Below are positions 1-61,174 of a stretch of 64,000 nt of DNA, one piece after another (position 1 is the stretch's first letter; each line of letters opens with the position of its first letter). A program made the position numbers and the translations under genes. Under the pieces are notes generated by a model that had not been told where the DNA came from, did no database searches, and saw only the letters and a list, made by a program, of their open reading frames with translations. Source of the stretch: Myxococcales bacterium (GTDB lineage Bacteria > Myxococcota_A > Polyangia > Nannocystales > Nannocystaceae); the NCBI GenBank assembly GCA_020633295.1, contig JACKDW010000006.1, positions 398,181-462,180 of the forward strand, given 5' to 3'.

Positions 1-214
1 GGCGATGCGCGCGGTCTTTGGCAATCGCGCGCGCTTTCAACCCCGCGCCCCCGATCGCGCGCGACGTCGGGACGCTCGCGGACGTCGCGCGTGCTATAGT
101 GAGCGCCCGCTCCATGCCCTCACGAGGTCCCACGCAGTGACGGCCGCTCAACCCGAAGCAGGGCCCGAGGTCGGACTGTCGCCGGGTTTGTCGTCCCTCG
201 GCGCGATCCCGACG

Positions 215-1882
<1,668 letters not shown>

Positions 1883-6337: not shown

Positions 6338-8596
6338 TCAGTCGACGCGCACCACCGTCGCCTCGCCGAGGCCGCGGGTCAGCGCCCGCTCGAGCCGGGC
6401 CGCGAGCCCGGTGTAGCGACGGGCCGCGTCGCCCCGGCGCACGGCCTGCGAGATCGCCCGCGGGTCGCCGACGACGACGCACAGCCGACGCGCGCGCGTG
6501 ATCGCGGTGTACAGGAGGTTGCGGCGCAGCATCACGTGGTGCTCGCCGAGCAGCGGCACGATCACCGCCGGGAACTCGCTGCCCTGGCTCTTGTGGATCG
6601 AGATCGCGTAGGCGAGCTGCAGCGACGAGATCTGCTTGTGGTCGTAGTTCAGCGGCACGCCGTCGACCTCGACGACGAGCGAGCGCTCCTCGGGGTCGAC
6701 GTGCGAGACCACGCCGATGTCGCCGTTGAACACGCCGCGCTCGTGGTCGTTGCGGATCTGCATGACGCGGTCGCCGACCCGGAACAGCCGCGGCGGCGCG
6801 CGCCCGATGCCCGGCAGCTCGAGCTCGCGGGCGCCCGCGGTGTGGTGGGCCTGCAGCGCGAGGTTGAACGCGAGCGTGCCGGCGCGGCCCTTGTGCATCG
6901 GGCACAGGATCTGGACGTCGTTGCGGGCGTCGAGCTTGTAGGCCTCGGGCGCGCGCTCGACCGCGATCTTGACGACGAGCTCGTGGGCTCGCTGGGGGTC
7001 GCGCGCGCTGACGACGAAGAACTCGCCGGCGGCGTCGCTGTCGGGGTCGGGGCGCTCGCCGCGGAGCACGCGGTGCGCGTTGCGGACGATCGAGGAGCCC
7101 TCGGCCTGGCGGAAGATCTGGTTGAGGCGGACCACCGGGATCGGCGAGCTCGGGCGCTCGGCGGCGGCGATGATGTCGCGCAGGACGTTGCCGGGGCCGA
7201 CCGAGGGCAGCTGATCGATGTCGCCGACGATCAGCAGGCGGTGCTCGGGCGTCAGCGCCGAGAGCAGCGCCTCGGCCAGCGGCAGGTCGAGCATCGAGGC
7301 CTCGTCGATGACGACCAGCCCCTGCGGCAGCGGGTTGTTGGTGTGGTACGTGAACGCGCCGCTGTCGCCCTGGATCTCGAGCAGGCGGTGGATCGTCGTC
7401 GCCCGCTGACCTGTCGCCTCGGACAGGCGCTTGGCCGCGCGCCCCGTCGGCGCGGCCAGGAACAGCTCGACCTTGTTGGCGACCGCCAGCTCGATGATCT
7501 GGCGCGTGACCGTGGTCTTGCCCGTGCCGGGGCCGCCGGTGAGGATCGCCAGCCCGGCCTCGGCGACCGCCTCGACGGCGCGCCGCTGACCCGGGCTCAG
7601 GGTCTCCGGCAGCGCGCCGACCGCCCACGGGGAGTGCGGGGCCACGGCGAGCTGCGCGAGCGCCCGCGCCACCGCGACCTCCGCGTCGACGAACGGCGCC
7701 GGGAACACCAGGAGCAGCGACTCGCCGCGCGTCTCCTGGATCAGCGCGTCCTCGGCGACCAGGCGCTCGACCCCCTCGCGCACGCGCGGGCCGGGCAGCT
7801 CGAGGATCTGCGCCGCGTTCATCACCAAGCGATCCAGCGGCAGCGCGCAGTGCCCCTCGGACTCGGCGCGCTCGAGCGTGTACAGCAGCCCCGCGTCGAC
7901 GCGCTCATCGGAGTCGAGCGAGACGCCGACGGCGCGGGCGATGCGATCCGCCGTCATGAAGCCGATCCCGCGGATGTCGCGGGCCAGGCGATACGGGCGC
8001 TCGCGGACCATATCTATGGCCTCTTCGCCGTAGCGGCGAAAGATCCGCGACGCGTGGTACACGGGGACCTCGAGCTCGATCAGCAGGTTCTCGACCGCCG
8101 CCTCCGGCCCGTGGCGCGACTCGTGGTACTCGAGCACGCGCTCGAGGGTCTTCTCGCCGATGCCGCTGACCTCGAGCAGGCGCCGCGGCTGGCGATCGAG
8201 GATCGTCAGCGTGTCCGCGCCGAAGCGCTGGATAATCCGCTCGGCGCGATCGGGCCCGAGCCCGGGGTAGCGCTCGAGTCGCCGCTGGATCCCCGCGGTC
8301 GTCGTCGGCGCCTTGATCACGAGCCGGGCGAAGCGAAACTGTCGCCCGTACGTCGGGTGGTCGGCCCACTCGCCCGCGGCCGAGACCTCGGCGTCCTCCT
8401 CGACGCCGCGGGTTCGCCCGACCCAAGTAGCGACCTCCTGGGCGCCGGGCGAGCGCACGCGCAGGATCGTGAAGCGCGAGTCCGCGAAGTACCGCGAGCT
8501 GACGACGACCCCCTCGAGCTGCTCCTCCTCGGACTCCGCGCCTTTCGCGCGAGACCCGCCGACCCCATCGAAGCCGTGAAATCCTCCACTCACCAT
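6338..8596 (-). CDS. recD2: RecD2-type ATP-dependent DNA helicase (RecD-like, SF1B)
   Basis: Walker A GGPGTGKTT, VIDEASM, helicase motif SIHKSQGSEF, TAITRAR, HhH-like N-terminal region. The start is placed at the internal ATG (MVSGGFHG); the Arg-rich upstream extension to 9058 is judged non-coding. Confidence 0.85.
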   Translation of the reverse strand: MVSGGFHGFDGVGGSRAKGAESEEEQLEGVVVSSRYFADSRFTILRVRSPGAQEVATWVGRTRGVEEDAEVSAAGEWADHPTYGRQFRFARLVIKAPTTTAGIQRRLERYPGLGPDRAERIIQRFGADTLTILDRQPRRLLEVSGIGEKTLERVLEYHESRHGPEAAVENLLIELEVPVYHASRIFRRYGEEAIDMVRERPYRLARDIRGIGFMTADRIARAVGVSLDSDERVDAGLLYTLERAESEGHCALPLDRLVMNAAQILELPGPRVREGVERLVAEDALIQETRGESLLLVFPAPFVDAEVAVARALAQLAVAPHSPWAVGALPETLSPGQRRAVEAVAEAGLAILTGGPGTGKTTVTRQIIELAVANKVELFLAAPTGRAAKRLSEATGQRATTIHRLLEIQGDSGAFTYHTNNPLPQGLVVIDEASMLDLPLAEALLSALTPEHRLLIVGDIDQLPSVGPGNVLRDIIAAAERPSSPIPVVRLNQIFRQAEGSSIVRNAHRVLRGERPDPDSDAAGEFFVVSARDPQRAHELVVKIAVERAPEAYKLDARNDVQILCPMHKGRAGTLAFNLALQAHHTAGARELELPGIGRAPPRLFRVGDRVMQIRNDHERGVFNGDIGVVSHVDPEERSLVVEVDGVPLNYDHKQISSLQLAYAISIHKSQGSEFPAVIVPLLGEHHVMLRRNLLYTAITRARRLCVVVGDPRAISQAVRRGDAARRYTGLAARLERALTRGLGEATVVRVD

Positions 8597-8649
8597 CGCC
8601 GTCGGGCCTGCAGGGAGGCTTACCACGACCGCCGTGTCCACCGCTTGTT

Positions 8650-10431
8650 TCACGGCGCGCTGCCCGGTGACGAGCCGCCCTGCGGATGCGCCTGCCACAC
8701 ACCTGGACGATCGCAGCCGAAGGCGATCGCGGGTGTGGGCGACGAGATCACGCTCTGCCCGTTCGCGGATAACTCCTCCTCGGGCGCGCGTCGCGTGTCG
8801 ATCAACGTCCACGGTGCACCGGGCGCCATCGCGGCCCGCACGAGCGTGAGCGGCTCGCCGGCGTTCTTCAGCCCGCCGTCGGCGATCGACGAGTCGAGCG
8901 TCACGACCACCGCGTCGCTGGGCGGATCCGGGTCGGCCGGATCGCCCCACACGTAGCCGCTGCCGACCACCACCGTCCGCTGCCCCGGACGCGTGACAAA
9001 GCTCGGCAGCGCGTCTCCGGGCGTCGCGTCGGCCGGGAGCGCGCGCACCTCCGACCACGGGCGATCGACCACCCGCAGGTCCGAGATCGTCACCTCGTCA
9101 CCGTGCTCGCGCACGTCGAGCAGCTCGATGAACTCCTGACCCGGCTCCGCGCCGGCCGGGTTCCCGAGCACCTCGGCGATCGTCAGCGGGACGCTGAGGT
9201 CCGCCGCGCCGAGGTCGAGCGCGACCGTCTCCTCGGCCGTGTTGCCCGCCAGGTCACGGACCGTCAGGGACAGCTCGAGGGTCTCCGCGTCGCCGAGGTC
9301 CTCGCCCGGAACTCGGGCCGCGAGCTCCAGCTCGCCGGACGCCAGGACCTCGACCTGCGCGCCCGACGCCCATGACATCGTGAACACGACGGGCTCGGCC
9401 GTGGACACGCGCGCGTGCACACACGGTCCCTGCAGCTCGACCGTCGCGCCGGCCAGCGACGGCGGCTCCTCATCGAGCTCCTCCGCCGCCGTGAACCACT
9501 CCTGGACCGCGGGCGGCGCGACCGCGCGACCGAGGTGATCGCGCAGCGTCCCGCCGGCCACGCGATAGGTCATCAAGGGCTCGAGCGCGTGCTCGGGCCG
9601 CCAGGTCAGGCAGAACGCCGCCGGCCAGCCGTCGCAGCCGCGCGGCTCGATCAGCGCCACTCGCTGCCCGTCGACGCCCTCGAGCTCCACGGTCGCCGTG
9701 GCCTCGAGCGCCACCGGGCGCGCGAAGCTCGTCGTCACGCGCGCGAGGTTCGGCGGCACCCCTGCCCCGCCCGGCGCCGGCTCCACCAGGCGCGGCTCCG
9801 GGCCCGACGAGCCCTCGTGGGCCGTCACGAGGTCCCTTCGCCAGTGGCTCACGCGGCCGCTCGCGTCGACCAGGGGCGCGCCGCCGCGGTCCCGAACGCC
9901 GCCGAGGATCAGGCTGTAGCGCCAGCGCGGCGTCAAGGCCCGGGCCGGCTGCAGCCGCAGGCGCGTCGCCTCGCCGAGCTCCCCGTCCAGCAGCGTGACC
10001 TCCAGGGTCACTCGCGCCCCGTCCGGCGCGTACTCGCCGTCCAGGAGCGCCGCGAGGTCCGAGCTCGAAAGAGGATCCTCGAGGCAGCGGCCGCGCTCAC
10101 ACGATCCGCGCGCGCAGACCGGATCGCTGCGGCACTCGCCGACCTCCTCCCAGGGCACCAGCGCGAGCGCGCCGGGACCCAGGCTGGCCTCGTCCAGCGG
10201 CTCCGAGAGCTCCACCGTGATCTGCGGCCGAACCTCGACCTCGACCGTCCGCGGCGACGGCAGCGACGACGCGACCACGCGCGGGCCGTCTACATCAGCC
10301 GTCGGCGCGCCCAGGCAGGACGCCAGCGCGAGGCCGACGACCAGCGCGTACGCCTCGCGTCCGCGCGGCCGACCGGCGTGAAGCACGCGCGTGGAGACGG
10401 GCGCCGAGAGTCCGTGCATCACGGTGTGCAT
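8650..10431 (-). CDS. Lipoprotein with C-terminal lamin-tail-like (LTD) domain
   Basis: Signal and lipobox LALASCLGAP. C-terminal LTIAEVLGNPAGAEPGQEFIELLDVREHGDEVTISDLRVVD matches the LTD consensus (EVL.NP....NEFIEL.N). Diverged divergently from the next gene. Confidence 0.65.
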   Translation of the reverse strand: MHTVMHGLSAPVSTRVLHAGRPRGREAYALVVGLALASCLGAPTADVDGPRVVASSLPSPRTVEVEVRPQITVELSEPLDEASLGPGALALVPWEEVGECRSDPVCARGSCERGRCLEDPLSSSDLAALLDGEYAPDGARVTLEVTLLDGELGEATRLRLQPARALTPRWRYSLILGGVRDRGGAPLVDASGRVSHWRRDLVTAHEGSSGPEPRLVEPAPGGAGVPPNLARVTTSFARPVALEATATVELEGVDGQRVALIEPRGCDGWPAAFCLTWRPEHALEPLMTYRVAGGTLRDHLGRAVAPPAVQEWFTAAEELDEEPPSLAGATVELQGPCVHARVSTAEPVVFTMSWASGAQVEVLASGELELAARVPGEDLGDAETLELSLTVRDLAGNTAEETVALDLGAADLSVPLTIAEVLGNPAGAEPGQEFIELLDVREHGDEVTISDLRVVDRPWSEVRALPADATPGDALPSFVTRPGQRTVVVGSGYVWGDPADPDPPSDAVVVTLDSSIADGGLKNAGEPLTLVRAAMAPGAPWTLIDTRRAPEEELSANGQSVISSPTPAIAFGCDRPGVWQAHPQGGSSPGSAP

Positions 10432-10489: not shown

Positions 10490-11923
10490 GTGCGAAGTTG
10501 CCACGCGATGGTTCGCGCGCAGCAGGGTGAGCATCGCGCTCGCCGGGCGCTCGCCTTGACGCTGCTGACGATCCCGGCCTGCGTCGAGCCCTGGACGCCC
10601 AGCGCCTCGAGCGGACCAATTGGTCAGGTAGCGTCGAGCGCCACCGACAGCGGCGCGACGCTCGACGACGGCGCGACCACAGGCGCGAGCGCGAGCCCGA
10701 GCGCCGGCGCGGGCTCGACCGCCGCGTCCACTGGCGGTGAGCCGGACGCCTCGACCACGGGCGCGAAGTTCGACGTCGGCCAGCAGCCCGACAGCCCGCC
10801 CGCGCCGGGCTGCCCCGGCGATGGGCCCGACCTCATCTATAGCCACATCTGGATCGCCAACTCGCCGCTGGGCACGGTCTCGAAGATCGACACGCGCACG
10901 CGCGTCGAGCTCGCGCGCTACGTCACCGCGCCCGACCACGCCGGCAACCCGTCGCGGACCTCGGTCAACCGCGCCGGCGACGTCGCCGTGGTCAACCGCG
11001 CCGGCGGCGTCGTCAAGATCGCCGGGCAGCTCTCGCGCTGCGTCGACCGCGACGGCGACGGCCTGCGGACGACCGCCACGAGCCCGACCGCGCTGCCCTG
11101 GGGCGACGACGAGTGCGTGCTCTGGTACACGCCGCTGCCCGTCGAGTCACGCCCGGCCGCGTGGACGCCGGGCGAGCTCGTCACGGCGCCGACGCCCGAC
11201 GACGACGGCTGCAAGCTCGCGCTGCACGACGCGCGCCTGTGGACCTCGGCGCCTGTCGGTTCGGACATCCACGTGTACCTGCTCGACGGCGAGACCGGCG
11301 ACGTCGAGGGGACCGCGGTGATCCCCGGCATCGCCGGTCCGCTCGGCGTGTACGGCGGGGCCGTCAACGCGGCCGGCGACTTCTGGGGCGTCGTCTACCC
11401 GTACGGCCCGCTCGTCCGCGTCGCGCTCGCGGACCTCGCCCACGAGGTCATCGAGCTCGCGATCCCGAGCGCCTACGGCTTCACCGTCGACGCCCACGGG
11501 CGCCCGTGGGTCGGCGGCTTCGACGGCGCGCTGCAGCGGCTGCACCCGACCACGCACTCGTGGGTCACGGTCGACACCGGCGGGCTCTGGAGCCTGATGC
11601 GCGGCATGACCGAGGACCAGGACGGCGTGCTGTGGGTCGCCACGCTCGCGCCGCCCGGGCTGCTGATGGTCGACACGACCAGCGCCGAGGCGATCGCGCA
11701 CCTCGGCGAGGCCGAGCTCCCCGGCGTCGACACGCCGACCGGCGCGAGCGTGGACGGCGAGGGGAAGATCTGGCTCGTCGACCAGCAGAAAGACGGCGGC
11801 GGCGCGTTCGTGTTCGATCCCGTGACCGCCGAGCTCGACTTCGTCGGGGGGCTCGACGCCCCCTACACGTACTCCGACATGACCGGCTGGGCGCTCGGCA
11901 ACGTCGCGCCGCCGAGCGGCTGA
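10490..11923 (+). CDS. Putative lipoprotein, beta-propeller-like secreted protein
   Basis: Signal with lipobox LLTIPAC, Ser/Thr/Gly-rich linker, then a repetitive Gly/Asp/Trp/Val-rich body typical of beta-propeller repeats. The alternative GTG or ATG at 10508 is a likelier start. Confidence 0.6.
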   Translation: MRSCHAMVRAQQGEHRARRALALTLLTIPACVEPWTPSASSGPIGQVASSATDSGATLDDGATTGASASPSAGAGSTAASTGGEPDASTTGAKFDVGQQPDSPPAPGCPGDGPDLIYSHIWIANSPLGTVSKIDTRTRVELARYVTAPDHAGNPSRTSVNRAGDVAVVNRAGGVVKIAGQLSRCVDRDGDGLRTTATSPTALPWGDDECVLWYTPLPVESRPAAWTPGELVTAPTPDDDGCKLALHDARLWTSAPVGSDIHVYLLDGETGDVEGTAVIPGIAGPLGVYGGAVNAAGDFWGVVYPYGPLVRVALADLAHEVIELAIPSAYGFTVDAHGRPWVGGFDGALQRLHPTTHSWVTVDTGGLWSLMRGMTEDQDGVLWVATLAPPGLLMVDTTSAEAIAHLGEAELPGVDTPTGASVDGEGKIWLVDQQKDGGGAFVFDPVTAELDFVGGLDAPYTYSDMTGWALGNVAPPSG

Positions 11924-12099: not shown

Positions 12100-15646
<3,547 letters not shown>

Positions 15647-15929
15647 CGCGCGCCGAGTAACATGTCTTTACAACCATCCGGTGACGCCGCGCGCGCCCCC
15701 GGGGCGCGCGACGTCGCGAAGGGCGAGGCGCGACGCGAGCGCACGAGCGCCGGCAGGTCACGGCGCGGTCGAGGTGCCGCCTGATCAACCGCCGTCCCTG
15801 CCCCCACACACGACAGCGGCGGGGCGCCGCCGACCCCGCGAGCGTCCTCGCGCCCGGCCCGTCGGGCCTCTACGCGGGCCAGGAGCGCGCTTCCTGCGGG
15901 GTGTGGAGAAACGCCACAGCCCGAATAAA

Positions 15930-16160
15930 TCCAAACACTTACAAACGAGGACGCCCACTTCCGCGCCGACTCAGGGTTTCCCACAAGTTATCCACATGGA
16001 ATCTACAGTGATCTGAAAAACATAAATTTCTTTCCCACAAACCGCGGATTCCGCGCCACCAGACGCTCGTGACATGTCTTGAAAGACCTGACGAGTCGTA
16101 CACCTTCGCGCGCGCGCCGGGCGTGGCCGCGCGCGTCGCCGCCGCTGTCTAAAAAGACAT
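15930..16160. promoter_or_regulatory. AT-richer intergenic segment with short inverted repeats upstream of the giant kinase gene (candidate promoter/operator region)
   Basis: GC content drops locally (cgaataaatccaaacacttacaaacgagg...gatctgaaaaacataaatttctttccc). Inverted repeats GTCTT-GA-AAGAC (about 16075) and TGTCT-AAAA-AGACA (about 16146). Located in the 920-bp gap between the histidine kinase stop and the 16583 start. Confidence 0.25.
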
Positions 16161-16582
16161 CTCGTCGCCGACGCGCGTCCCCGCGTCCTCGTGCACATAC
16201 AACGAGTCACGCCGCGCGGGACCTCGCGCGCGCGCGCGCCGTCAGCGGCGCGCGCGGCCCCAGCGCAGCCCGCGCGGCGCGCACGGCCAGCGCGCGACGA
16301 CGAGCCATCGACGCACGCGCGCTGCGGGCCCGGCGTCTCGCGCGCGACGACGACGGATCACGACCCGCGCGCGCGCGGGCTCCCGCGTGATCGTGCGCCC
16401 GCGCGTGCCGGCGTCGCGGCCCCGGCTGCGCGCGCGCGGCTCGGATCTCGATCTGTCCATAAAGACTCCTGAAATCGAGCGCCCCGCTGAGCGCCTCGCG
16501 CGTTTTCGCGTTAGCCGCGACGCTGCGGGCGCGCAGCGGAGATTTCGCCGGGATGCGATGGGCGATAGACTTCCTGTAAGGA

Positions 16583-19500
16583 ATGAGCCCGCCTCCTCCC
16601 GCTGCGGGCAGCGCCCCGCCCGAACGCCCGGAGCACCCGACGCAGATCGGCCACTTCTCCGTGCTCTACACGCTCGGCGAGGGCGGCATGGGCGTCGTCT
16701 ACGCGGCGCGAGACAACAAGCTCGGACGCAAGGTCGCGATCAAGGTCGTCCACAAGGCGCCGGGCGAGGAGTCGCGCGGTCGCGCGCGCATGCTGCGGGA
16801 GGCGCAGGCGATGGCTCGCCTCTCGCACCCCAACGTCGTCCAGGTCTACGAGGTCGGCGAGCACGACGGCCAGGTCTACGTCGCCATGGAGTTCGTCAAG
16901 GGGCGGACGCTGCGCGACTGGCAGCGCGAGGCGACGCGCTCGTGGAAGGAGGTCCTCGAGCGCTACATCGAGGCGGCGCGCGGGCTCGCGGCGGCCCACA
17001 AGAAGGGCCTGGTGCACTGCGACTTCAAGCCGCACAACGTGCTCGTCGACGACGAGGAGGGCCGCGTGCGCGTCCTCGACTTCGGGCTCGCGCGCACGTA
17101 CCACCAGCAGAGCGTCAACGTGAAGGCGCGCAAGGCCGCGGCGCTCGGCGCCCAGCGGGCCGGGCTCGAGACGCTCGAGACCTCCATGACCATGTCGGAC
17201 ATGGTCACCGGCACGCCCGCGTACATGTCCCCTGAGCAGTATCAGGGCAAGCGCGCGACCGCGTTCTCCGACCAGTTCAGCTTCTGCGTCGCGCTCTACG
17301 AGGGGCTCTACGGCGCGCGCCCGTTCTCGGGGCAGAACCCGGCCGCGCTCGCGTTCCAGGTCAGCGCGGGCGAGATCGAGGACCCCCCGCGCGACGCCAA
17401 GGTCCCGAGCTGGCTGCGCCGCGTGATCGTCCGCGGGCTCGCGCCCGATCCGGAGGAGCGCTGGCCGTCGATGGAGGCGCTGATGTCGGCGCTGCAGCGC
17501 GACGCCGGCGCGGCGCGGCGCTACCGGGTGCGCATCGAGGGCATCAACATCGAGCGCTTCAAGCTGCTCTCCTCGGCCGGCTACGTGCAGCTCAAGCCGT
17601 TCCGCGACGGGCAGGCGACGGTCATCTACGCCGGCGCGCGCGAGGAGGACCACCTGCCCGTGCTCGTCAAGCTGCTGCGCAACGAGGCGCCGACGCCGAG
17701 CGAGCTGGCGCGGATGCGACGCGAGCGCGCGCTGCTCGAGCGCTTCGACGACCCGGGCGTGCTGCGCGTGGTCAAGCTCGAGCACCACGGCCGCGGGCTC
17801 GCGCTCGTGCTCGAGAACTTCAGCGCCGCGTCGCTGCGCCAGCGCATCGTCGAGACCGGCGGGCTCGCGATCGACGAGTTCCTGCGCTTCGCCACGCGGG
17901 CCGTCGACGCGCTCGCGGTCGTGCACGCCGAGGGCCTCGTGCACAAGGACATCAGCCCCGACCACATCCTGCTGCACCGCGCGAGCGGGCGCGTCGCGCT
18001 GATGGACTTCGACGTCGCCTCCGAGATCTCCGAGGAGGCGCCCTCGGTCGTCGACCCCGATCAGCTCGAGGGCACGCTCGCCTACATGGCGCCCGAGCAG
18101 ACCGGGCGGATGAACCGCAAGGTCGACTACCGCAGCGACTACTACGCGCTCGGCGTGACCTTCTACGAGGCGCTGACGGGCCAGCTGCCCTTTGAGACCT
18201 CTCACCCGATGGAGCTGGTGCACGCCCACATCGCGCTCGCGCCCACGCCCCCGAGCGAGGTCTCCGCCAACGTCCCCGAGGCGCTCTCGCGCATCATCCT
18301 GCGGCTGATGTCCAAGACCGCGGAGGACCGCTACCAGAGCGCCGACGGGCTGCGCCTGGACCTCGAGCGCTGCGCCCGCGAGTGGGAGCGCCACGGCTGG
18401 ATCGAGGACTTCCCGCCCGGCGAGCACGACACCTCCGACAACTTCCAGATCCCGCAGAAGCTCTACGGGCGCGAGCACAGCGTCAACCTGCTGATGGCGG
18501 CCTTCGAGCGCGCCGCCGGCGGCTCGACCGAGGTCATGCTGATCGCGGGCCCCTCGGGCATCGGCAAGTCCGCGGTGATCCGCGAGGTCCACAAGCCGAT
18601 CGTCGCGCGCCGCGGCTACTTCATCTCCGGCAAGTCGGACCCGCTCAGCCGCGACGTCCCCTACACCGCGGTCATCCAGGCGTTCCAGGACCTGTTCCGT
18701 CAGCTCCTGCGCGAGTCCGACGACTCGCTGCAGCGCTGGCGCGAGATGCTGCTCGACGCGCTCGGCGGCCAGGGGCACGTGCTGATCGACGTGCTGCCCG
18801 AGCTCGAGCTCGTCATCGGCGCGCAGCCGCCGGTCTCGCAGCTGCCGCCCACGGAGTCCGCCAACCGCTTCCGCACGCTGTTCCGCAAGCTCGTGCAGGT
18901 GTTCGCGCGCGACGAGCACCCGCTCGTGATGTTCCTCGACGACCTGCAGTGGAGCGACCTCGCCGCGCTCAAGCTGATCGAGCAGCTCGCGATCGACAAC
19001 GAGCTCTCCGACCTGCTGATCCTCGGCGCCTACCGCGATCACGAGGTCCCGCCCGATCACCTGCTCAACCAGATCGTGCGCGCGATCGAGGAGTCGGGCC
19101 GCGTCGTCGCGCGCCACACCCTGCAGCCGCTCGACCTCGACCACACCGCCGCGCTCGTCCGCGACACGCTGACGCCGAGCCCGCGCGACACGAGCGACCT
19201 GGTCCGCGTCATCCAGACCAAGACCGAGGGCAACCCCTTCTTCGTCCGCGTGCTGCTCAGCTCGCTGTACGAGCAGGGCGTGCTCCGCTTCGACCGCAGC
19301 GCGGGCGGCTGGAGCTGGGACGACGCCGAGGTCGCGAGCGCGCGCATCAGCGACGACATCGTCGCGCTGATGAGCGCGCGCATCGGCGAGCTCGCGCCCG
19401 CGACCCGCAACGCGATCGAGCACGCCGCGTGCCTCGGCAACCGCTTCACGCTCGAGCTGCTCGCGATCATCACCGAGCAGGAGCCGCGGATCGTCGCGCG

Positions 19501-22500
19501 CGACCTGTGGGAGGCGCTCGAGCGCGGCCTCGTGCAGGCGCTCGGCGACTCGTACAAGTACGTCGGCGCGTCCTCCGAGGGCTCGTCGACCACGCTCACG
19601 CTCCCGCACGACATCGAGTACCGCTTCGTCCACGACAAGGTGCAGCACGCCGCCTACTCGCGGCTCGAGGTCCGGCGGCGCCAGGAGATCCACCTCCGCG
19701 TCGGCCGCCTGCTGCTCGCGCGCGCCGAGTCCGAGGGCGAGGAGCTGGGCGAGCGGCTGTTCACGGTCACCGCCCACCTCGCCGCCGCCGCGCCGCTGAT
19801 CACCGCGCCGGCCGAGCGCCTCAACCTCGCGCGCCTCAACCTCGCCGCGGGCCGGCGCGCCAAGCTCGCGATCGCGTACCGCTCGGCGGTCAGCCACCTG
19901 CGCAGCGGGATCGACCTGCTGCCCGACGAGGCCTGGCGCGACCAGTACGACCTGACCTTCGCGCTGCACCGCGAGCTGATGGAGTCCGAGTACCTCGGCG
20001 GCAACGTCGAGGCCGCGCTCGTGCTGTTTCAGCCGCTCGTCGCGCGCGCGCGCACCGACCTCGAGCGCGCGCAGATCTACGAGCTGAAGGTCTCGCTCGA
20101 GACCTACCGCAAGCAGAACTCGCTCGCGCTCTCCACCGCGTTCGAGGGCCTCGCGCAGCTCGGCGTCCACCTGCCGCAGACCGCGACCGTGCCGATCGTG
20201 CTCGTCGAGTTCCTGCGCGTGCAGCTCGCCCGCCGCTGGCGCGCCGCCGACGACCTCACCGACCTCCCAGAGCTCCACGAGCCGCGCAAGACGCTGCTGC
20301 AGCGCCTGCTGACGACCGCGGTGCCCGCGGCCTACTTCGTCGACACCAAGCTCGCCGCGCTGATCCTGCTCAAGAGCGCCCGGATCTCGCTGCGAGATGG
20401 CTACACGGACATGTCGGCCTTCGGCGTCGCCGGCTACGGCTTCGTGCTCTCCGGCGTGTTCGGGCGGCACGACGAGGCCTACGAGTTCGGCAAGCTCGCG
20501 CTGCGCCTCAACGAGCGGTTCAAGAACTCCTGGCTCGACGTCAAGCTCGACTTCCTCGTCGGGCTGTTCATCGCCAACTGGGTCGAGCCGTTCGCCGCCG
20601 CGCGCCGCCGGCTGCACCGCAGCTACCAGCAGGGCATCCAGCAGGGCGACCTCGCGTTCGCGCTCTACAGCGGCGTCATGTACATCAACGTCGCGCTCGT
20701 CGAGGGCCAGACGGTCGACCGGATCTACGGGCTCGCCGAGAGCATGGAGCCGACGGCGCAGCGCGCCGGCGAGATCGACGGCATCGCGATGCTCAGCTCG
20801 ATCAAGCGCATGTGCATGGCGCTGCGCGGGCAGACGCTGCAGCCGACGCGCTTCGACACCGTCGACTGGGCCGAGGCCGACTTCGCCGCGGGCCTCGACG
20901 ACAAGACGACGCCGCAGGCGATGTTCTATTACAACCTGCACAAGCTGATCGCGCTGTACCTGTTCGGCGAGTTCGAGGCGGCGCGCGAGGTCAGCGGGCG
21001 GCTCGAGGCGCGGCTCGAGACGGTGCTCGCGCAGCCGGCCAGCGCGGACTTCGTGTTCTACGACGCGCTCACGGCCGCGGCGCGCTACGGCGCGGCGTCC
21101 CGCAGCGAGCGCCGGCGGATCCGCACCACGCTCGCGCGCGCGACCAAGAAGCTGCGCCGCTGGAGCGGCTTCTGCCCCAACAACTTCGCGGCGCGCCTGC
21201 TGATCGTCCGCGCCGAGCAGTCGCGCGTGCTCGGCCGCCGCGACGCGTTCATCCTCTATAACCAGGCGATCCAGACCGCGCGCACGCACGAGTCGATCAT
21301 CTGCGAGGCGCTCGCGCTCGAGATGACCGCACGCTACGCGCTCACCGCGGGCTACGAGGTCGCGGTCGAGTCCTACGCGACCGCGGCCTGCGACGCCTAC
21401 CGCCGCTGGGGCGCGCGCGCCAAGGTCGAGCAGCTCAGCCAGGAGTTCGGCGACCACTTCCCGATCTACGCGCTGCCGCCCGCGCCCGAGGAGCCCGAGG
21501 AGACGCAGTCGTCGTCCGCGACCATGACCTCGACGGCGCAGGACCTCGACCGTGTCAGCCGCACCTTCCAGTCGATCGTCGACGACCTCAACCTCGACGG
21601 CCTGCTCACCAACATGACGCAGACGCTCACCGAGTTCACCGGGGCGCGGCACTGCGTCGTGCTGCTCGAGCGCGACGGCGCGCTGACGGTGGAGGCCGAG
21701 GGCGGGCTCCCGCCGATGTCGGTGCAGCTCGGCCGCGGGCGCGCGCCGTCAGACTCCACGCTGCTGTGCGCGGCGATCGTCAAGTACGTCGCGCGCACCC
21801 ACGAGCCGGTGCTGCTGACCAACGCCGCCGAGAGCGGCGACTTCACGAGCGACCCCTACATCAAGAGCGGCGCCGTGCGCTCGGTGCTGTGCGCGCCCAT
21901 GCTCCTGCGGCGCGACGATCTCGTCGGCGTGATCTACCTGGAGAACGGGCTCGCGCCGGACGTGTTCCGCCACGAGCACGTCGCCGCGCTCGCGCAGCTG
22001 CTGCCCCCGGTCGCGGTCGCGATCCGCACGGCGATGCGCGCCAATTCGTACCGGCGCTTCGTGCCCCACGCCGCGCTCGACCGGCTCGCCGAGCGGGTCA
22101 AGCGCGAGCTGCGTCCCGGCGATCACGTCAACATCGAGGGCACCGTGCAGGCGCTTTCGCTGCGGGGCACCGCCGCGATCGTCGGCGACGGGCGCGGCAT
22201 GCGGAGCGCGCTCGCGCTGCTCAACCGCTTCTTCGACGCGGCCGCGATGATCGTCGAGCGACACGGCGGCTTCGTCGCCGAGCGCTCCAGCGACTCGCTG
22301 ACCGCCTGCTACCCCGGGGGCTCAGGCCCCGCGCTGACCGCCGCGACCGAGCTGCTCGAGATCGGCCACGAGCTGTTCATGCACCGCGAGCACGCGAGCC
22401 GCTACGCCGGCGTCGACATCGGCATCGCGCTGCACGCTGGCCCCGTGACCGTCGGCGCCGTCGGCAGCGACCGCGAGCTCTCGCTCGTGATGCTCTCGCG

Positions 22501-22786
22501 CACGGTGACGATCGCGCGCGCGATGGCGCGGCGCTGCGACAGCTACGGCGCCTCGCTGATCCTGAGCGAGGCCGTCAAGGCGCAGCTCCCCGAGACAGGG
22601 CACCTCGAGATCCGCGCGCTCAACCGCCTCGACCCCGACGACGGCGGCGGGTCGATCCAGGTCTACGAGGTGTTCTCGGCGGTCCCTGGCGAGGGCGAGC
22701 CGATGAAGAGCTTCGCGGAGCGCTTCGCCCAGGACCTCCACGAGTCGCTCGAGGAGCCGCGGGCGGAGCTCCCAGGCGAGCGCTGA
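16583..22786 (+). CDS. Giant multidomain signalling protein: Ser/Thr kinase, second kinase-like domain, P-loop NTPase (AAA/STAND-like), helical/TPR-like region, GAF domain, and a C-terminal adenylyl/guanylyl cyclase homology domain that looks degenerate
   Basis: Kinase 1 has GEGGMGVVYAARD, VAIKVV, HCDFKPHNVLVD, DFGLAR, GTPAYMSPEQ. Kinase-like 2 has VHAEGLVHKDISPDHILL, DFDVASEI, GTLAYMAPEQ. Walker A LIAGPSGIGKS follows the LYGRE motif. GAF-like segment about aa 1600-1790. C-terminal fold resembles class III cyclases (GIALHAGPVTVGAVGS) but lacks the FxDIxGFT metal-binding signature. Confidence 0.85.
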   Translation: MSPPPPAAGSAPPERPEHPTQIGHFSVLYTLGEGGMGVVYAARDNKLGRKVAIKVVHKAPGEESRGRARMLREAQAMARLSHPNVVQVYEVGEHDGQVYVAMEFVKGRTLRDWQREATRSWKEVLERYIEAARGLAAAHKKGLVHCDFKPHNVLVDDEEGRVRVLDFGLARTYHQQSVNVKARKAAALGAQRAGLETLETSMTMSDMVTGTPAYMSPEQYQGKRATAFSDQFSFCVALYEGLYGARPFSGQNPAALAFQVSAGEIEDPPRDAKVPSWLRRVIVRGLAPDPEERWPSMEALMSALQRDAGAARRYRVRIEGINIERFKLLSSAGYVQLKPFRDGQATVIYAGAREEDHLPVLVKLLRNEAPTPSELARMRRERALLERFDDPGVLRVVKLEHHGRGLALVLENFSAASLRQRIVETGGLAIDEFLRFATRAVDALAVVHAEGLVHKDISPDHILLHRASGRVALMDFDVASEISEEAPSVVDPDQLEGTLAYMAPEQTGRMNRKVDYRSDYYALGVTFYEALTGQLPFETSHPMELVHAHIALAPTPPSEVSANVPEALSRIILRLMSKTAEDRYQSADGLRLDLERCAREWERHGWIEDFPPGEHDTSDNFQIPQKLYGREHSVNLLMAAFERAAGGSTEVMLIAGPSGIGKSAVIREVHKPIVARRGYFISGKSDPLSRDVPYTAVIQAFQDLFRQLLRESDDSLQRWREMLLDALGGQGHVLIDVLPELELVIGAQPPVSQLPPTESANRFRTLFRKLVQVFARDEHPLVMFLDDLQWSDLAALKLIEQLAIDNELSDLLILGAYRDHEVPPDHLLNQIVRAIEESGRVVARHTLQPLDLDHTAALVRDTLTPSPRDTSDLVRVIQTKTEGNPFFVRVLLSSLYEQGVLRFDRSAGGWSWDDAEVASARISDDIVALMSARIGELAPATRNAIEHAACLGNRFTLELLAIITEQEPRIVARDLWEALERGLVQALGDSYKYVGASSEGSSTTLTLPHDIEYRFVHDKVQHAAYSRLEVRRRQEIHLRVGRLLLARAESEGEELGERLFTVTAHLAAAAPLITAPAERLNLARLNLAAGRRAKLAIAYRSAVSHLRSGIDLLPDEAWRDQYDLTFALHRELMESEYLGGNVEAALVLFQPLVARARTDLERAQIYELKVSLETYRKQNSLALSTAFEGLAQLGVHLPQTATVPIVLVEFLRVQLARRWRAADDLTDLPELHEPRKTLLQRLLTTAVPAAYFVDTKLAALILLKSARISLRDGYTDMSAFGVAGYGFVLSGVFGRHDEAYEFGKLALRLNERFKNSWLDVKLDFLVGLFIANWVEPFAAARRRLHRSYQQGIQQGDLAFALYSGVMYINVALVEGQTVDRIYGLAESMEPTAQRAGEIDGIAMLSSIKRMCMALRGQTLQPTRFDTVDWAEADFAAGLDDKTTPQAMFYYNLHKLIALYLFGEFEAAREVSGRLEARLETVLAQPASADFVFYDALTAAARYGAASRSERRRIRTTLARATKKLRRWSGFCPNNFAARLLIVRAEQSRVLGRRDAFILYNQAIQTARTHESIICEALALEMTARYALTAGYEVAVESYATAACDAYRRWGARAKVEQLSQEFGDHFPIYALPPAPEEPEETQSSSATMTSTAQDLDRVSRTFQSIVDDLNLDGLLTNMTQTLTEFTGARHCVVLLERDGALTVEAEGGLPPMSVQLGRGRAPSDSTLLCAAIVKYVARTHEPVLLTNAAESGDFTSDPYIKSGAVRSVLCAPMLLRRDDLVGVIYLENGLAPDVFRHEHVAALAQLLPPVAVAIRTAMRANSYRRFVPHAALDRLAERVKRELRPGDHVNIEGTVQALSLRGTAAIVGDGRGMRSALALLNRFFDAAAMIVERHGGFVAERSSDSLTACYPGGSGPALTAATELLEIGHELFMHREHASRYAGVDIGIALHAGPVTVGAVGSDRELSLVMLSRTVTIARAMARRCDSYGASLILSEAVKAQLPETGHLEIRALNRLDPDDGGGSIQVYEVFSAVPGEGEPMKSFAERFAQDLHESLEEPRAELPGER

Positions 22787-59218: not shown

Positions 59219-61174
59219 CTACTTCTTGCGCGGGACCTCGAACTTCGTCACGACGCCCTCCTCGGGGTCGATCTCGACGTTCTCGCTGTTGTGGTTGGAC
59301 TTCTTCGTCGTGGTCTTGCGCAGCTTGAACGACAGCGGCTTGGGCTTCGAGCCCTCCGCGATCTTCACGGTCTTCTTCTCGGTGCGGTAGCCCGAGCGCT
59401 TGACCACGACCGTGTGCTCCCCCGGCGCGAGCTCGACGGTCAGCGGCGTCTTGCCGCGCTTGTCGTCGTCGACGCTGACCTCGGCGCCGTCCGGGTTGCT
59501 CTCGATCTTGTAGGCGACCAGCGCGGGCTCCGGCGGCGTGTCGCCCGTCGGATCGCCCGTCGGATCGACCTCGTCGCCCGAGTCCGCGACCGTGTCGCCG
59601 GTCTCCTCGGGCGTCGCGCTGCTGTCTGCGGCGGCCGCCGCCGCCGCGAGGCTCGCCTTGATCGCCTCGGCGCGCGCGCTCGCGGTCGCGTTGTCTGCGT
59701 CGCGCGTGAGCACGTCGAGGTACAGCGCGAGGGCGTCCTCGAGCTCGCCCGCGGTCTCCTTCGCCTGGGCCTGCGCGAGCAGCTCGGCCACGGGATCCGG
59801 ATCCGGATCGAGCGTCTCGCCGGCGGCGTCCGCCTCCCCGCTCTCGCCAGGCAGCGCCGAGCTCACGTTCGTCGCCGCGACCGGCGTCTTCGCGTCGGCC
59901 GGGATCGGCGTCTTCGCCGGCGGGCCGCGCTTCGTCACCATCGGCCCGTTCGTCGTCGGGCCCGCCGCGTTGTTGAGGAAGGGCAGCTGCCCCTGGCTGT
60001 ACAGGTACGCGCCGACGCCCCCGAGCGCGAGCAGCAGGAGCACGACCACGAGGCCGCCGCCGGAGCCCTTCGACTCACTCGCCTCGGGGCTGTGGGCCTC
60101 GATGACGGGCGCGGGCGTCTCCTCGCTCACCGGGTCCGGCGGCGACGTCAGCTCTGGCGCGGGCTCGGACGCGGCGCGCACGGGCGCGCTCGGCGGGCGC
60201 GCGACGACGATCGGCGCGACCGGGAGAGACTCGCGGGCCGCGATCGGCGTCGCGACCGCGACCACGCCGGCGGGCCGGGGCTTCGCGGGCTCAGCCTTCG
60301 GCAGGCGGAACATGGCCGCAGGGACAGAATCAATCAGGTACTCGACGATCTCGTTGGCGTCGATCGGCCGTTCGTTCGGGTTCTTCGACAGGCACGCGCG
60401 CACGAGCTCGACGACGCCGTCGGGCACGTCGTGGCCCGGCCGCAGCACCGACGCGAGCGGCGTCGGCTGATCGTTGATGATCTTGTAGAGCACCTGCGCG
60501 TCGGTGCCCTGGAACGGCTTGCGGCCCGCGAGCATCGTGTAGAACAGCACGCCGATCCCGTAGACATCGGTGCGCGGATCGAGCGGGCCCTGCTGCACCT
60601 GCTCCGGGGCCCAGAACCCTGCGGACGCCTCCGCGTTCGCCTGGTCCGCGACATCGCCGAAGATCTGCAGCAGCCCGAGATCGCAGATCTTGACGAAGTT
60701 CGCGCGGCCCTTGTGCTCGATCAGCAGGATGTTCGACGGCTTGAGCGCGCGGTGCAGCAGCCCGCGCGCGTGCGCGGCCCCCATCGCCTTGAGGACCTGC
60801 GCGGCGATCGGCACGAACACCTCGATCGAGAGCGGCGCGTTGCGACCGAGGAACTCGTCCAGCGTCGTGCCCTCGACGTACTCGACGACGACGTACGCGC
60901 CGAACTCGGTCGAGAAGCCGAAGTCGTGGACCGCGGTGATGTTGGGGTGCTCGAGCCCCTGCAGCGCCTTGGCCTCGCGCTCAAACCGCGCGCGCGACTC
61001 TGGCGTGCTAGCGACCGCCTCGGGCAGCAGCTTGACGGCCACGGTCCGGTGAAGCGTGCGGTGGCTCGCCAGGTACACGCGACCCTTCACGCCCGTGCCG
61101 AGCAACCGCTCGAGCGTGTAGTGCGAGCCAACGGTCCGCCCGAGCAGCGGATCGGCCTTGGCGGCGACCTTCAT
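59219..61174 (-). CDS. Ser/Thr kinase-like protein predicted to be a pseudokinase, with TM segment and C-terminal PEGA domain
   Basis: Kinase fold is evident (VAVKLL, APEQ, DVYGIGVLFY), but HRD is HRALKP (catalytic Asp replaced by Ala), DFG is DLG, and the Gly loop is atypical (LGTGVKGRV). TM stretch LVVVLLLLALGGVGAYLY. C-terminal PEGA-like segment TPLTVELAPGEHTVVVKRSGY. Confidence 0.75.
   Translation of the reverse strand: MKVAAKADPLLGRTVGSHYTLERLLGTGVKGRVYLASHRTLHRTVAVKLLPEAVASTPESRARFEREAKALQGLEHPNITAVHDFGFSTEFGAYVVVEYVEGTTLDEFLGRNAPLSIEVFVPIAAQVLKAMGAAHARGLLHRALKPSNILLIEHKGRANFVKICDLGLLQIFGDVADQANAEASAGFWAPEQVQQGPLDPRTDVYGIGVLFYTMLAGRKPFQGTDAQVLYKIINDQPTPLASVLRPGHDVPDGVVELVRACLSKNPNERPIDANEIVEYLIDSVPAAMFRLPKAEPAKPRPAGVVAVATPIAARESLPVAPIVVARPPSAPVRAASEPAPELTSPPDPVSEETPAPVIEAHSPEASESKGSGGGLVVVLLLLALGGVGAYLYSQGQLPFLNNAAGPTTNGPMVTKRGPPAKTPIPADAKTPVAATNVSSALPGESGEADAAGETLDPDPDPVAELLAQAQAKETAGELEDALALYLDVLTRDADNATASARAEAIKASLAAAAAAADSSATPEETGDTVADSGDEVDPTGDPTGDTPPEPALVAYKIESNPDGAEVSVDDDKRGKTPLTVELAPGEHTVVVKRSGYRTEKKTVKIAEGSKPKPLSFKLRKTTTKKSNHNSENVEIDPEEGVVTKFEVPRKK

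Follow-up and report, generated by a model that had tools for sequence, protein, structure and literature searches.

The 64,000-nucleotide stretch analyzed here (the window; contig JACKDW010000006.1 of a Myxococcales bacterium) contains, at 16583-22786 on the forward strand, a gene for a 2067-aa protein in which two kinase-like domains, a P-loop NTPase, a GAF domain and a cyclase-like domain are fused. This architecture raises the question of which of the domains remain enzymes and which of them provides the output of the protein. Our analysis indicates that the protein belongs to a cyclase-ended sub-branch of the HstK/CHK1-type signaling family, that its ancestral cyclase output has probably decayed to a structural or regulatory domain, and that an added N-terminal kinase has probably become the output.

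Domain architecture and orthologs

The gene is a single uninterrupted open reading frame (ORF) of 2067 codons followed by a stop. Within this forward-strand frame, the GC content at third codon positions (GC3) is 0.98 (overall GC of the window, 72%, or 0.722), and the strong domain matches fall in the same frame; these features mark a 1713-aa ORF of the reverse strand as a mere shadow of the high GC content. In NCBI, the protein (MCB9752595.1) is labeled 'MAG: protein kinase [Myxococcales bacterium]', where MAG stands for metagenome-assembled genome, and a second, truncated copy is labeled 'GAF domain-containing protein'.

From the N-terminus, the protein comprises a Hanks-type kinase (KD1), a second, kinase-like domain (KD2), an AAA_16 P-loop NTPase, a helical region, a GAF domain and a cyclase homology domain (CHD) (Table 1). 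Pfam, HMMER, a family profile and Foldseek together recovered every domain named in a first-pass annotation of this DNA, in the order given there, and a motif scan of the protein placed all the motifs quoted in it where they are expected (GEGGMG at aa 32, VAIK at 51, HCDFKPHN at 145, DFG at 166, HKDISPDH at 454, DFD at 475, LYGRE at 627 and GPSGIGKS at 656). No match to HisKA or HATPase_c was detected in the 2067-aa protein with Pfam, the output position being occupied by the cyclase domain. No transmembrane segment was found either, as no 19-residue window of the entire protein has a Kyte-Doolittle mean of at least 1.6, and a weak Pfam match to DUF350 was dismissed as noise. Together, these features predict a soluble, cytoplasmic member of the HstK/CHK1-type signaling family.

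Two other assignments were considered and rejected. The TOMM kinase/cyclase fusion family TIGR03903 scores 256.9 bits against an NCBIfam cut-off of 705.75, and its best stretch lies in the kinase domain only. A role in anti-phage defense was suggested by PADLOC and NCBIfam matches (PD-T4-6, Mad6, PglW), which cover only KD1 or KD2 and are generic to kinases; the gene context, with FIST, hybrid histidine kinase, DUF1588 and DUF1501 neighbors, does not include defense genes.

A scan of one genome per species identified orthologs in two Polyangia MAGs, namely, L002, which is 89% identical and syntenic with the window, and L001, which is 57% identical. A scan of metagenomic contigs with the alignment of the three orthologs as the query yielded no further orthologs, only ordinary kinases. 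The one-genome-per-species scan further yielded many homologs of about 1800 aa, encoded in Nostoc, Microcoleus, Leptolyngbya, Parabeggiatoa and one Coxiellaceae MAG, whose alignment extends through the C-terminal domain.

The C-terminal domain is homologous to class III cyclases

The CHD escapes conventional domain annotation. Pfam PF00211 (Guanylate_cyc) does not match the full 2067-aa protein, and on the isolated last 250 aa, an alignment that the first-pass annotation had proposed as a check, it yields a sub-threshold score (12.2 bits, E=0.13; gathering threshold, 21.9 bits). The C-terminal domains of L001 and L002 similarly have no Pfam match, and a cyanobacterial control homolog scores 83 bits against PF00211 (E=2.6e-23).

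Homology to class III cyclases, although below Pfam detection, appears secure from sequence comparison. A phmmer search against PDB sequences retrieved photoactivated and other class III cyclases (E~3e-4), and phmmer run exhaustively against 1.84 billion representatives produced 6009 matches with E<=1e-3, 1144 of these with E<=1e-10; the matches inspected are PF00211 proteins. A profile built from the CHD and its closest relatives matched Pseudomonas aeruginosa CyaB (3r5g) with E=6e-35, along with dozens of other solved class III cyclases. The AlphaFold2 (AF2) model of aa 1818-2050 has a predicted local distance difference test score (pLDDT) of 84.7 and a predicted template modeling (TM) score (pTM) of 0.83, and a Foldseek search of PDB with this model identified OaPAC (4yut; E=2.7e-14, TM score 0.71) as well as CyaB, Cya2 and sGC beta (TM scores 0.65-0.71, probability 1.00). 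The class III cyclase-like fold originally proposed for the C-terminus is thus borne out by three lines of evidence, phmmer, the family profile and the AF2 model. The hydrophobic core and the Gly positions of the domain are invariant across 54 homologs.

The best-scoring phmmer matches (P0002, P0004, P0005 and P0006) contain two or three tandem cyclase domains, of which one is degenerate and one intact, and appear to be bacterial C1/C2-like pseudo-heterodimers; their degenerate domains read, for example, D-K-D-T-H-Q or N-K-T-T-N-R at the catalytic positions described below. A word-indexed protein search with the CHD alone gave no match, and the same search with aa 1401-2067 gave only proteins ending in a histidine kinase or PP2C. 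Because exhaustive HMMER searching finds thousands of relatives, this null result reflects a property of the index rather than the absence of homologs.

Most catalytic positions of the cyclase domain are lost

The six canonical columns were taken from a hidden Markov model (HMM) alignment of 308 homologous domains, with the roles and spacing of the residues assigned after Rv1625c (PMC4174876; Table 1). The combination D-K-D-T-N-R is found in 243 of these 308 domains, and D..D.NR in about 90%. In the protein from the window, the six positions read S-E-D-V-T-A, in L002 A-E-D-V-T-T, and in L001 D-Q-D-V-S-A. Four of the six residues (S1859, V1969, T1976 and A1980) are unfit for the canonical role; D1904 is retained, and E1900 is a Glu of the guanylyl-cyclase type at the Lys position. 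The purine-specifying pair consists of Lys and Asp or Thr in adenylyl cyclases, and of Glu and Cys in guanylyl cyclases. In the pair E1900/V1969 (E/V in L002, Q/V in L001), the Glu is guanylyl-cyclase-like and the Val fits neither class. Both metal-binding Asp residues are present in L001, compared with Ser and Asp in the protein from the window and Ala and Asp in L002, and the transition-state Asn/Arg pair is absent from all three orthologs.

Since metal Asp 1 and the Asn/Arg pair are all lost, the protein from the window and L002 supply neither half of the canonical dimer-interface site. A homodimer of the CHD is accordingly predicted, from the residues at these positions, to be unable to form the canonical active site and to be inactive. 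The first-pass annotation had aligned the three motif blocks by eye, and both the multiple alignment and the 308-domain HMM alignment show that it did so correctly, including the reading of the Asn position as Thr (T1976). Its conclusion that the domain is a degenerate cyclase holds for the four unfit positions and for the replacement of Lys by E1900, and extends to the orthologs, given that L001 and L002 lack the Asn/Arg pair as well; the second Asp block, which it also considered altered, is intact at D1904. A 126-aa metagenomic fragment (P0064; 43% identity) has V, E and R at the last three positions and may represent a fourth lineage.

An added canonical kinase and a degenerate kinase-like domain

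The Pfam Pkinase family matches aa 27-300 of the protein, plus a second stretch, with E=3.8e-78. KD1 contains the G-loop GEGGMG (32), the Lys of VAIK (K54), the alphaC Glu (E73), HCDFKPHN (145-152), DFG (166) and SPE (216), and all these Hanks motifs are invariant across the three Polyangia orthologs; its HCD catalytic loop is of the non-RD type. With this complete catalytic-motif set, KD1 is predicted to be an active kinase. It is present in the three Polyangia orthologs only, and the cyanobacterial homologs lack it. The kinase domain encoded by a neighboring gene (26789-29935, reverse strand) and KD1 share 49% identity, compared with 28% between KD1 and KD2, which rules out a tandem duplication and indicates that KD1 was fused on, not copied from KD2. 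The neighboring kinase-TPR gene is likely a relative of the KD1 donor. It also contains the same activation-loop insert as KD1 and a SDQFSFCVALYE signature.

KD2 aligns over its full length with the sole kinase-like domain of the cyanobacterial relatives and retains the SPEQTGRMNR motif typical of the family, here in the form APEQTGRMNR. Its catalytic loop reads HKDISPDH (aa 454-461; nt 17942-17965), compared with HKDIKP[AS]N or HKDINP[AS]N among approximately 125 family members, and it has DFD (aa 475-477; nt 18005-18013) where these members have DFG or DFS. The terminal Asn of the catalytic loop is found in every common variant among the same relatives. In the three Polyangia orthologs, the loop reads HKDISPDH, HKDISPEH and HKDIGPDH, each combined with DFD. 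Thus, KD2 lacks the catalytic-loop Lys, the metal-binding Asn and the DFG Gly but keeps K363 (the VAIK Lys), E381, D456 and D475, and is predicted to be catalytically impaired.

Ancestry and selection

In a distance tree (neighbor-joining, NJ) of the shared core from KD2 through GAF (1482 columns), the Polyangia clade is monophyletic, with 100% bootstrap support, and is the sister group of L058 from Leptolyngbya sp. PCC 6406 (93% NJ bootstrap), with the cyclase-ended proteins grouping near the base of the tree. Because the cyclase of L058 is canonical, this placement suggests that the cyclase was inherited with the core and subsequently decayed.

Selection was estimated by the Nei-Gojobori method against L002, with bootstrapping over codons. 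The ratio of nonsynonymous to synonymous substitution rates (dN/dS) of the CHD is about 0.56 (95% bootstrap confidence interval 0.35-0.88, with values of at least 1 in 0.8% of the replicates), significantly above that of the rest of the protein (0.23; individual domains in Table 1); all these values are, if anything, overestimated, because a GC3 of 0.98 constrains synonymous change. Among the folded domains, the CHD is the least conserved, with 79% identity to L002 and 33% to L001, compared with 87-95% and 47-71%, respectively, for the others. Its frame and fold are kept in L001, despite 57% identity overall and 33% in the CHD itself, and no stop codon, frameshift or truncation of the domain was detected in the three lineages. 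The CHD is therefore relaxed yet still under purifying selection.

Probable decay of the cyclase output and alternative explanations

The explanation that we consider probable is that the ancestral cyclase output decayed to a structural or regulatory domain and that KD1 took over as the output. In the Polyangia lineage, a kinase related to ordinary myxobacterial kinases has been fused to the N-terminus of an HstK/CHK1-type core. Under the proposed scenario, the GAF domain, the helical repeats or both would sense a signal, and the intact P-loop NTPase would drive a conformational or oligomeric switch that depends on nucleotide. KD1 would be the only remaining catalytic output, phosphorylating targets on Ser/Thr, with KD2 as its pseudokinase-like regulatory partner. 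The dead CHD would serve at the C-terminus in dimerization or allostery, passing on the state of the GAF domain; a regulatory or dimerization role had also been suggested at first pass.

Several alternatives assign the CHD a different fate. The degenerate domain could be a putative ligand-binding receptor whose remnant pocket (E1900, D1904, R1979) would accommodate a nucleotide or another small molecule and tune KD1 allosterically. Purifying selection continues on the domain, D1904 is invariant in 3/3 orthologs, and the Lys position holds Glu in two orthologs and Gln in L001; the pseudo-active (forskolin) site of mammalian adenylyl cyclase offers a precedent, pseudo-sites of class III cyclase dimers being described as binding regulators (PMC4174876). 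However, among the putative pocket residues only D1904 and V1969 are constant, the others varying between the orthologs (S/A/D, E/E/Q, T/T/S and A/T/A), and the CHD is the fastest-evolving domain; we regard a receptor function as unlikely. Similarly doubtful is the more far-reaching possibility of a STAND-type protein in which the pseudokinase KD2 and the pseudo-cyclase have both been re-purposed as allosteric regulators of the captured kinase, with the dead pocket (E1900, D1904) as a nucleotide sensor. If true, the protein would parallel, in a prokaryote, kinase-pseudokinase tandems such as JAKs or the tandem-kinase immune proteins of plants, and would show the replacement of an output domain in progress.

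Quite unlikely, in our assessment, is the view of the CHD as a functionless relic that drifts to loss while all function lies in the kinase, NTPase and GAF parts. Such drift would account for the lowest conservation among the folded domains, for the dN/dS significantly above the rest of the protein and for the unconserved C-terminal tail, but not for a dN/dS with an upper 95% bound below 1 even when inflated by the extreme GC3, nor for a frame that has stayed intact in three lineages despite divergence to 57% identity, invariant core and Gly positions, and a confidently predicted fold. Least probable of all appears to be a CHD that is still an enzyme, using a non-canonical site or forming a C1/C2-like heterodimer with a partner cyclase that supplies the missing residues. 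L001 is C1-like in keeping both metal Asp residues, examples of tandem or heterodimeric cyclases in which one half is degenerate are common (P0002, P0004, P0005 and P0006), and Rv0386 demonstrates that variation is possible at the substrate-specifying positions (PMC4452763). Against such activity, neither canonical half is possible in the protein from the window and L002, which lack metal Asp 1, Asn and Arg; no second cyclase domain is encoded within the 64-kb window; and the family output of the host protein is homodimeric.

Certain observations nevertheless weigh against the decay of the cyclase and its replacement by KD1. The inactivity of the CHD is predicted from its residues; D1904 and the adjacent R1979 remain, such that a non-canonical site is possible, and L001, with both metal Asp residues, could in principle complement a partner supplying Lys, Thr, Asn and Arg. 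Rv0386 is an active class III cyclase despite unusual substrate-specifying residues (Castro et al. 2005, as cited in PMC4452763). Unlike the CHD, Rv0386 keeps the metal and transition-state residues. The AF2 input alignment consists of canonical cyclases, which biases the model toward a cyclase fold. Loss of the Asn or Lys from the catalytic loop sometimes leaves a kinase active, so that ATP binding or turnover by KD2 is possible. The clade comprises three full-length orthologs and the 126-aa fragment P0064, the selection estimates come from one close pair and one saturated pair, and the sister placement of L058 could result from long-branch or compositional attraction. Finally, the gene neighborhood, conserved with L002 and represented in L001 by distant paralogs only, gives no clue to a pathway.

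Remaining domains of the protein

The NTPase contains LYGRE (627), Walker A GPSGIGKS (656-663) and Walker B MFLDDL (783-788), both Walker motifs being intact and kept across the family, whose pattern directly after the kinase-like domain is LYGRE...GxxGIGK[ST]...FLDDLQW. The kinase-like domain followed immediately by LYGRE and a Walker A, described at first pass as a kinase-AAA arrangement, is hence supported by the AAA_16 match and the location of the motifs. The GAF domain reported at aa 1600-1790 is present as well, with boundaries shifted to aa 1670-1814; homologs show GAF, GAF_2 and GAF_3 matches.

The helical region is alignable over its full length to HstK-type homologs, and PF25503 (TPR_CHK1) matches aa 1442-1624 weakly, under the cut-off (E=1.5e-4). 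Matches obtained with tblastn to HstK-type homologs show 34-37% identity over approximately 1700 aa; one homolog (P0166) is 31% identical across aa 616-1622, and members of the HstK/CHK1-type family are collinear at 28-37% identity over aa ~616-1817. The linker between the GAF domain and the CHD is presumed to be a signal-transducing helix. Its counterpart in homologs is AYERFVPxQFLQxL, with conserved columns R8, F9, P11 and L18, and its helices have low to moderate confidence in the structure model. The C-terminal tail is predicted to be disordered (pLDDT <50).

Table 1. Coordinates of the features of the gene and protein (nt, positions in the window; dN/dS, relative to L002)
Feature	Protein (aa)	Window (nt)	Strand	Basis or residues in orthologs	dN/dS
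Intergenic region, 936 bp		15647-16582	.	Conserved AT-rich patch ~15910-16032; conserved leader ~16330-16582	
Whole gene	1-2067	16583-22786	+	Predicted soluble multidomain signaling protein; identical to NCBI MCB9752595.1	
KD1, canonical Hanks-type Ser/Thr kinase	25-306	16655-17500	+	Pfam Pkinase, motifs	0.11 (lowest of all domains)
KD2, HstK/CHK1-type kinase-like domain	325-605	17555-18397	+	Alignment to ~125 family members	0.17 (92% identity)
AAA_16 / STAND-type P-loop NTPase	626-813	18458-19021	+	Pfam AAA_16, E=8e-40	0.22-0.38 (with helical region)
Helical / TPR-like region	814-1640	19022-21502	+	Full-length alignable to HstK-type homologs	0.22-0.38 (with NTPase)
GAF domain	1670-1814	21590-22024	+	Pfam GAF, E=2.2e-12	0.19
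Helical linker, GAF to cyclase fold, SYRRFVPHAALDRL	1818-1846	22034-22120	+	Alignment columns, model	
Degenerate class III cyclase homology domain	1847-2032	22121-22678	+	HMMER, family profile, AF2/Foldseek, alignments	0.55 (0.56 with bootstrapping, see text)
Metal Asp 1 (Rv1625c D256)	S1859	22157-22159	+	L002 A; L001 D	
Purine-specifying 1 (Rv1625c K296)	E1900	22280-22282	+	L002 E; L001 Q	
Metal Asp 2 (Rv1625c D300)	D1904	22292-22294	+	L002 D; L001 D	
Purine-specifying 2 (Rv1625c D365; Thr/Asp in adenylyl cyclases)	V1969	22487-22489	+	L002 V; L001 V	
Transition-state Asn (Rv1625c N372)	T1976	22508-22510	+	L002 T; L001 S	
Transition-state Arg (Rv1625c R376)	A1980	22520-22522	+	L002 T; L001 A	
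C-terminal tail	2033-2067	22679-22783	+	Poorly conserved, 43% identity to L002	0.70

Upstream region and gene neighborhood

The gene is preceded by a 936-bp gap, presumed to contain the promoter and a 5' leader. It had been described as a 920-bp AT-richer non-coding region; the gap is real, but with a GC of 0.705, compared with 0.722 for the window, its AT-richness is confined to a patch of approximately 120 bp (GC 0.49 at 15947-16046, measured per 100 bp). Both conserved upstream blocks are 77% identical to L002 by blastn, the AT-rich patch corresponding to L002 9350-9473. The 936 bp match neither an Rfam family nor a sigma-70-like promoter, and a single terminator-like hairpin is at the chance level. 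Candidate roles for the conserved blocks are those of an operator, a leader or a promoter not of the sigma-70 type.

Further upstream, a FIST-domain gene (12100-13287, forward strand) overlaps by 11 bp a gene for a hybrid histidine kinase with the PAS-HisKA-HATPase_c-REC-REC layout (13277-15646, forward strand); this pair, kept in L002, looks like an operon. In L002, an additional 925-aa ORF without a Pfam match (6497-9274, forward strand), which is missing in the window, lies between the hybrid kinase gene and the large gene. The product of another ORF (10490-11923, forward strand), which belongs to no Pfam family, has homologs near the large gene in L002 (1471-2640; 76%) and in L001 (5025-6116; 39%), the latter with a weak SGL/beta-propeller match.

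Downstream, on the same strand, the window contains a DUF1588/PSCyt3 gene (22957-25383) and a DUF1501 gene (25414-26751), as does L002. In L001, distant paralogs of this pair (24-29% identity; 6594-9725, reverse strand) are located divergently upstream of the ortholog, an adjacency that may be coincidental, such pairs being abundant in these genomes, or may reflect a functional link. The kinase-TPR gene related to KD1 lies approximately 4 kb downstream and encodes 1048 aa with Pkinase, TPR_12 and TPR_10 domains. It is one of three further Ser/Thr kinase genes in the 64 kb, the other two being at 2-1879 (forward strand) and 59219-61174 (reverse strand). An expanded kinome is typical of Polyangia, a lineage noted for very large and diverse kinomes.

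Comparison with known systems and significance

The closest known counterparts are Pkinase-AAA_16-GAF-Guanylate_cyc proteins of about 1800 aa from cyanobacteria, Parabeggiatoa and Coxiellaceae (L058; L003-L018 of Nostoc and Microcoleus; P0023), which share the core from KD2 to the C-terminus. They are alignable end to end with the protein from the window at 32-35% identity and have the same linker motif, RFVP...L. However, they have a single kinase-like domain with HKDI[K/N]PxN and DFG or DFS, and a canonical D-K-D-T-N-R cyclase that passes Pfam, whereas in the protein from the window KD1 has been added, and the KD2 and cyclase domains are degenerate. A combination of kinase and pseudo-cyclase output was called unusual at first pass; given these intact proteins, the joining of kinase and cyclase is not unique, and it is the addition of KD1 together with the double decay that is specific to the Polyangia clade. 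Trichodesmium Tery_2857 has been listed as 'GAF, CYCc' inside a dual-kinase cluster (PMC2176072). In the Microcoleus proteins encoded at L018 127-6321 and L037 6749-12859, a globin-like module of approximately 120 aa follows the intact cyclase domain, and two comparable proteins (P0229 and P0244) are annotated with PF00042 and PF00211. L013, L016 and L049 each contain two tandem paralogs of the kinase-GAF-cyclase gene.

Other members of the family have a histidine kinase at the output position. These include the kinase-GAF-histidine-kinase 'dual kinases' of cyanobacteria, HstK (Alr2258) and Pkn40/Pkn41 (cbSTKIII) of Anabaena/Nostoc (PMC2176072; PMC1262709), and fungal CHK1, with the S_TKc-GAF-histidine-kinase layout (PMC9069115). 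The succession of kinase-like domain, AAA_16, helical/TPR_CHK1 region and GAF is shared with the protein from the window, with 34-37% identity over its aa ~20-1817, but HisKA and HATPase_c, sometimes together with a receiver, take the place of the cyclase fold at the output position, and the extra N-terminal canonical kinase is missing. The expectation that related proteins more often end in a histidine kinase agrees with the homolog scan and the protein search, as well as with the published survey (PMC2176072).

Likeness to other cyclase-containing proteins is partial. Incomplete cyclase dimers and pseudo-sites, such as the C2-C2 homodimer of mammalian adenylyl cyclase and the pseudo-active (forskolin) site of C1-C2, do not have the full residue set of a canonical active site, and such sites can serve regulation (PMC4174876). 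The fold is the same, but the mammalian halves are complementary and one site works, whereas the CHD is a single domain lacking residues of both halves. The mycobacterial Mclx proteins (Rv0386, Rv1358 and Rv2488c) combine a cyclase domain, an AAA/NB-ARC ATPase and a LuxR helix-turn-helix domain (PMC4452763). Like the protein from the window, the Mclx and TIGR03903 proteins join a class III cyclase to an AAA_16/STAND-type NTPase, in TIGR03903 also with a kinase; unlike it, they have the cyclase domain at the N-terminus or internally and lack GAF, and the cyclase of Rv0386 is active. Myxococcus xanthus Pkn2 carries an active Ser/Thr kinase and a divergent cyclase-like domain in one polypeptide (PMC1262709). 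It thus shares this pairing but is a membrane protein without the NTPase or GAF. JAKs are tandem kinase-pseudokinase proteins, with an active kinase beside a degenerate kinase domain; such tandems are of independent origin, and the rest of their architecture is unrelated. We found no description in the literature of a protein in which a canonical kinase has been added and both KD2 and the cyclase are degenerate.

The case points to an annotation blind spot, in that Pfam and NCBI miss the cyclase fold and such proteins are filed as 'protein kinase'. Pseudoenzyme domains are well studied in eukaryotic signaling and, to our knowledge, rarely documented for bacteria. Here, a single polypeptide with intact relatives would illustrate how catalytic residues disappear from an ancestral cyclase and an ancestral kinase-like domain as a newly fused kinase takes over. 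With an uncultured Polyangia MAG as the host, the practical impact is modest. If the proposed explanation is true, the family would offer a tractable system for the role of a dead cyclase fold, be it in dimerization, allostery or ligand sensing, with the intact cyanobacterial homologs as natural controls.

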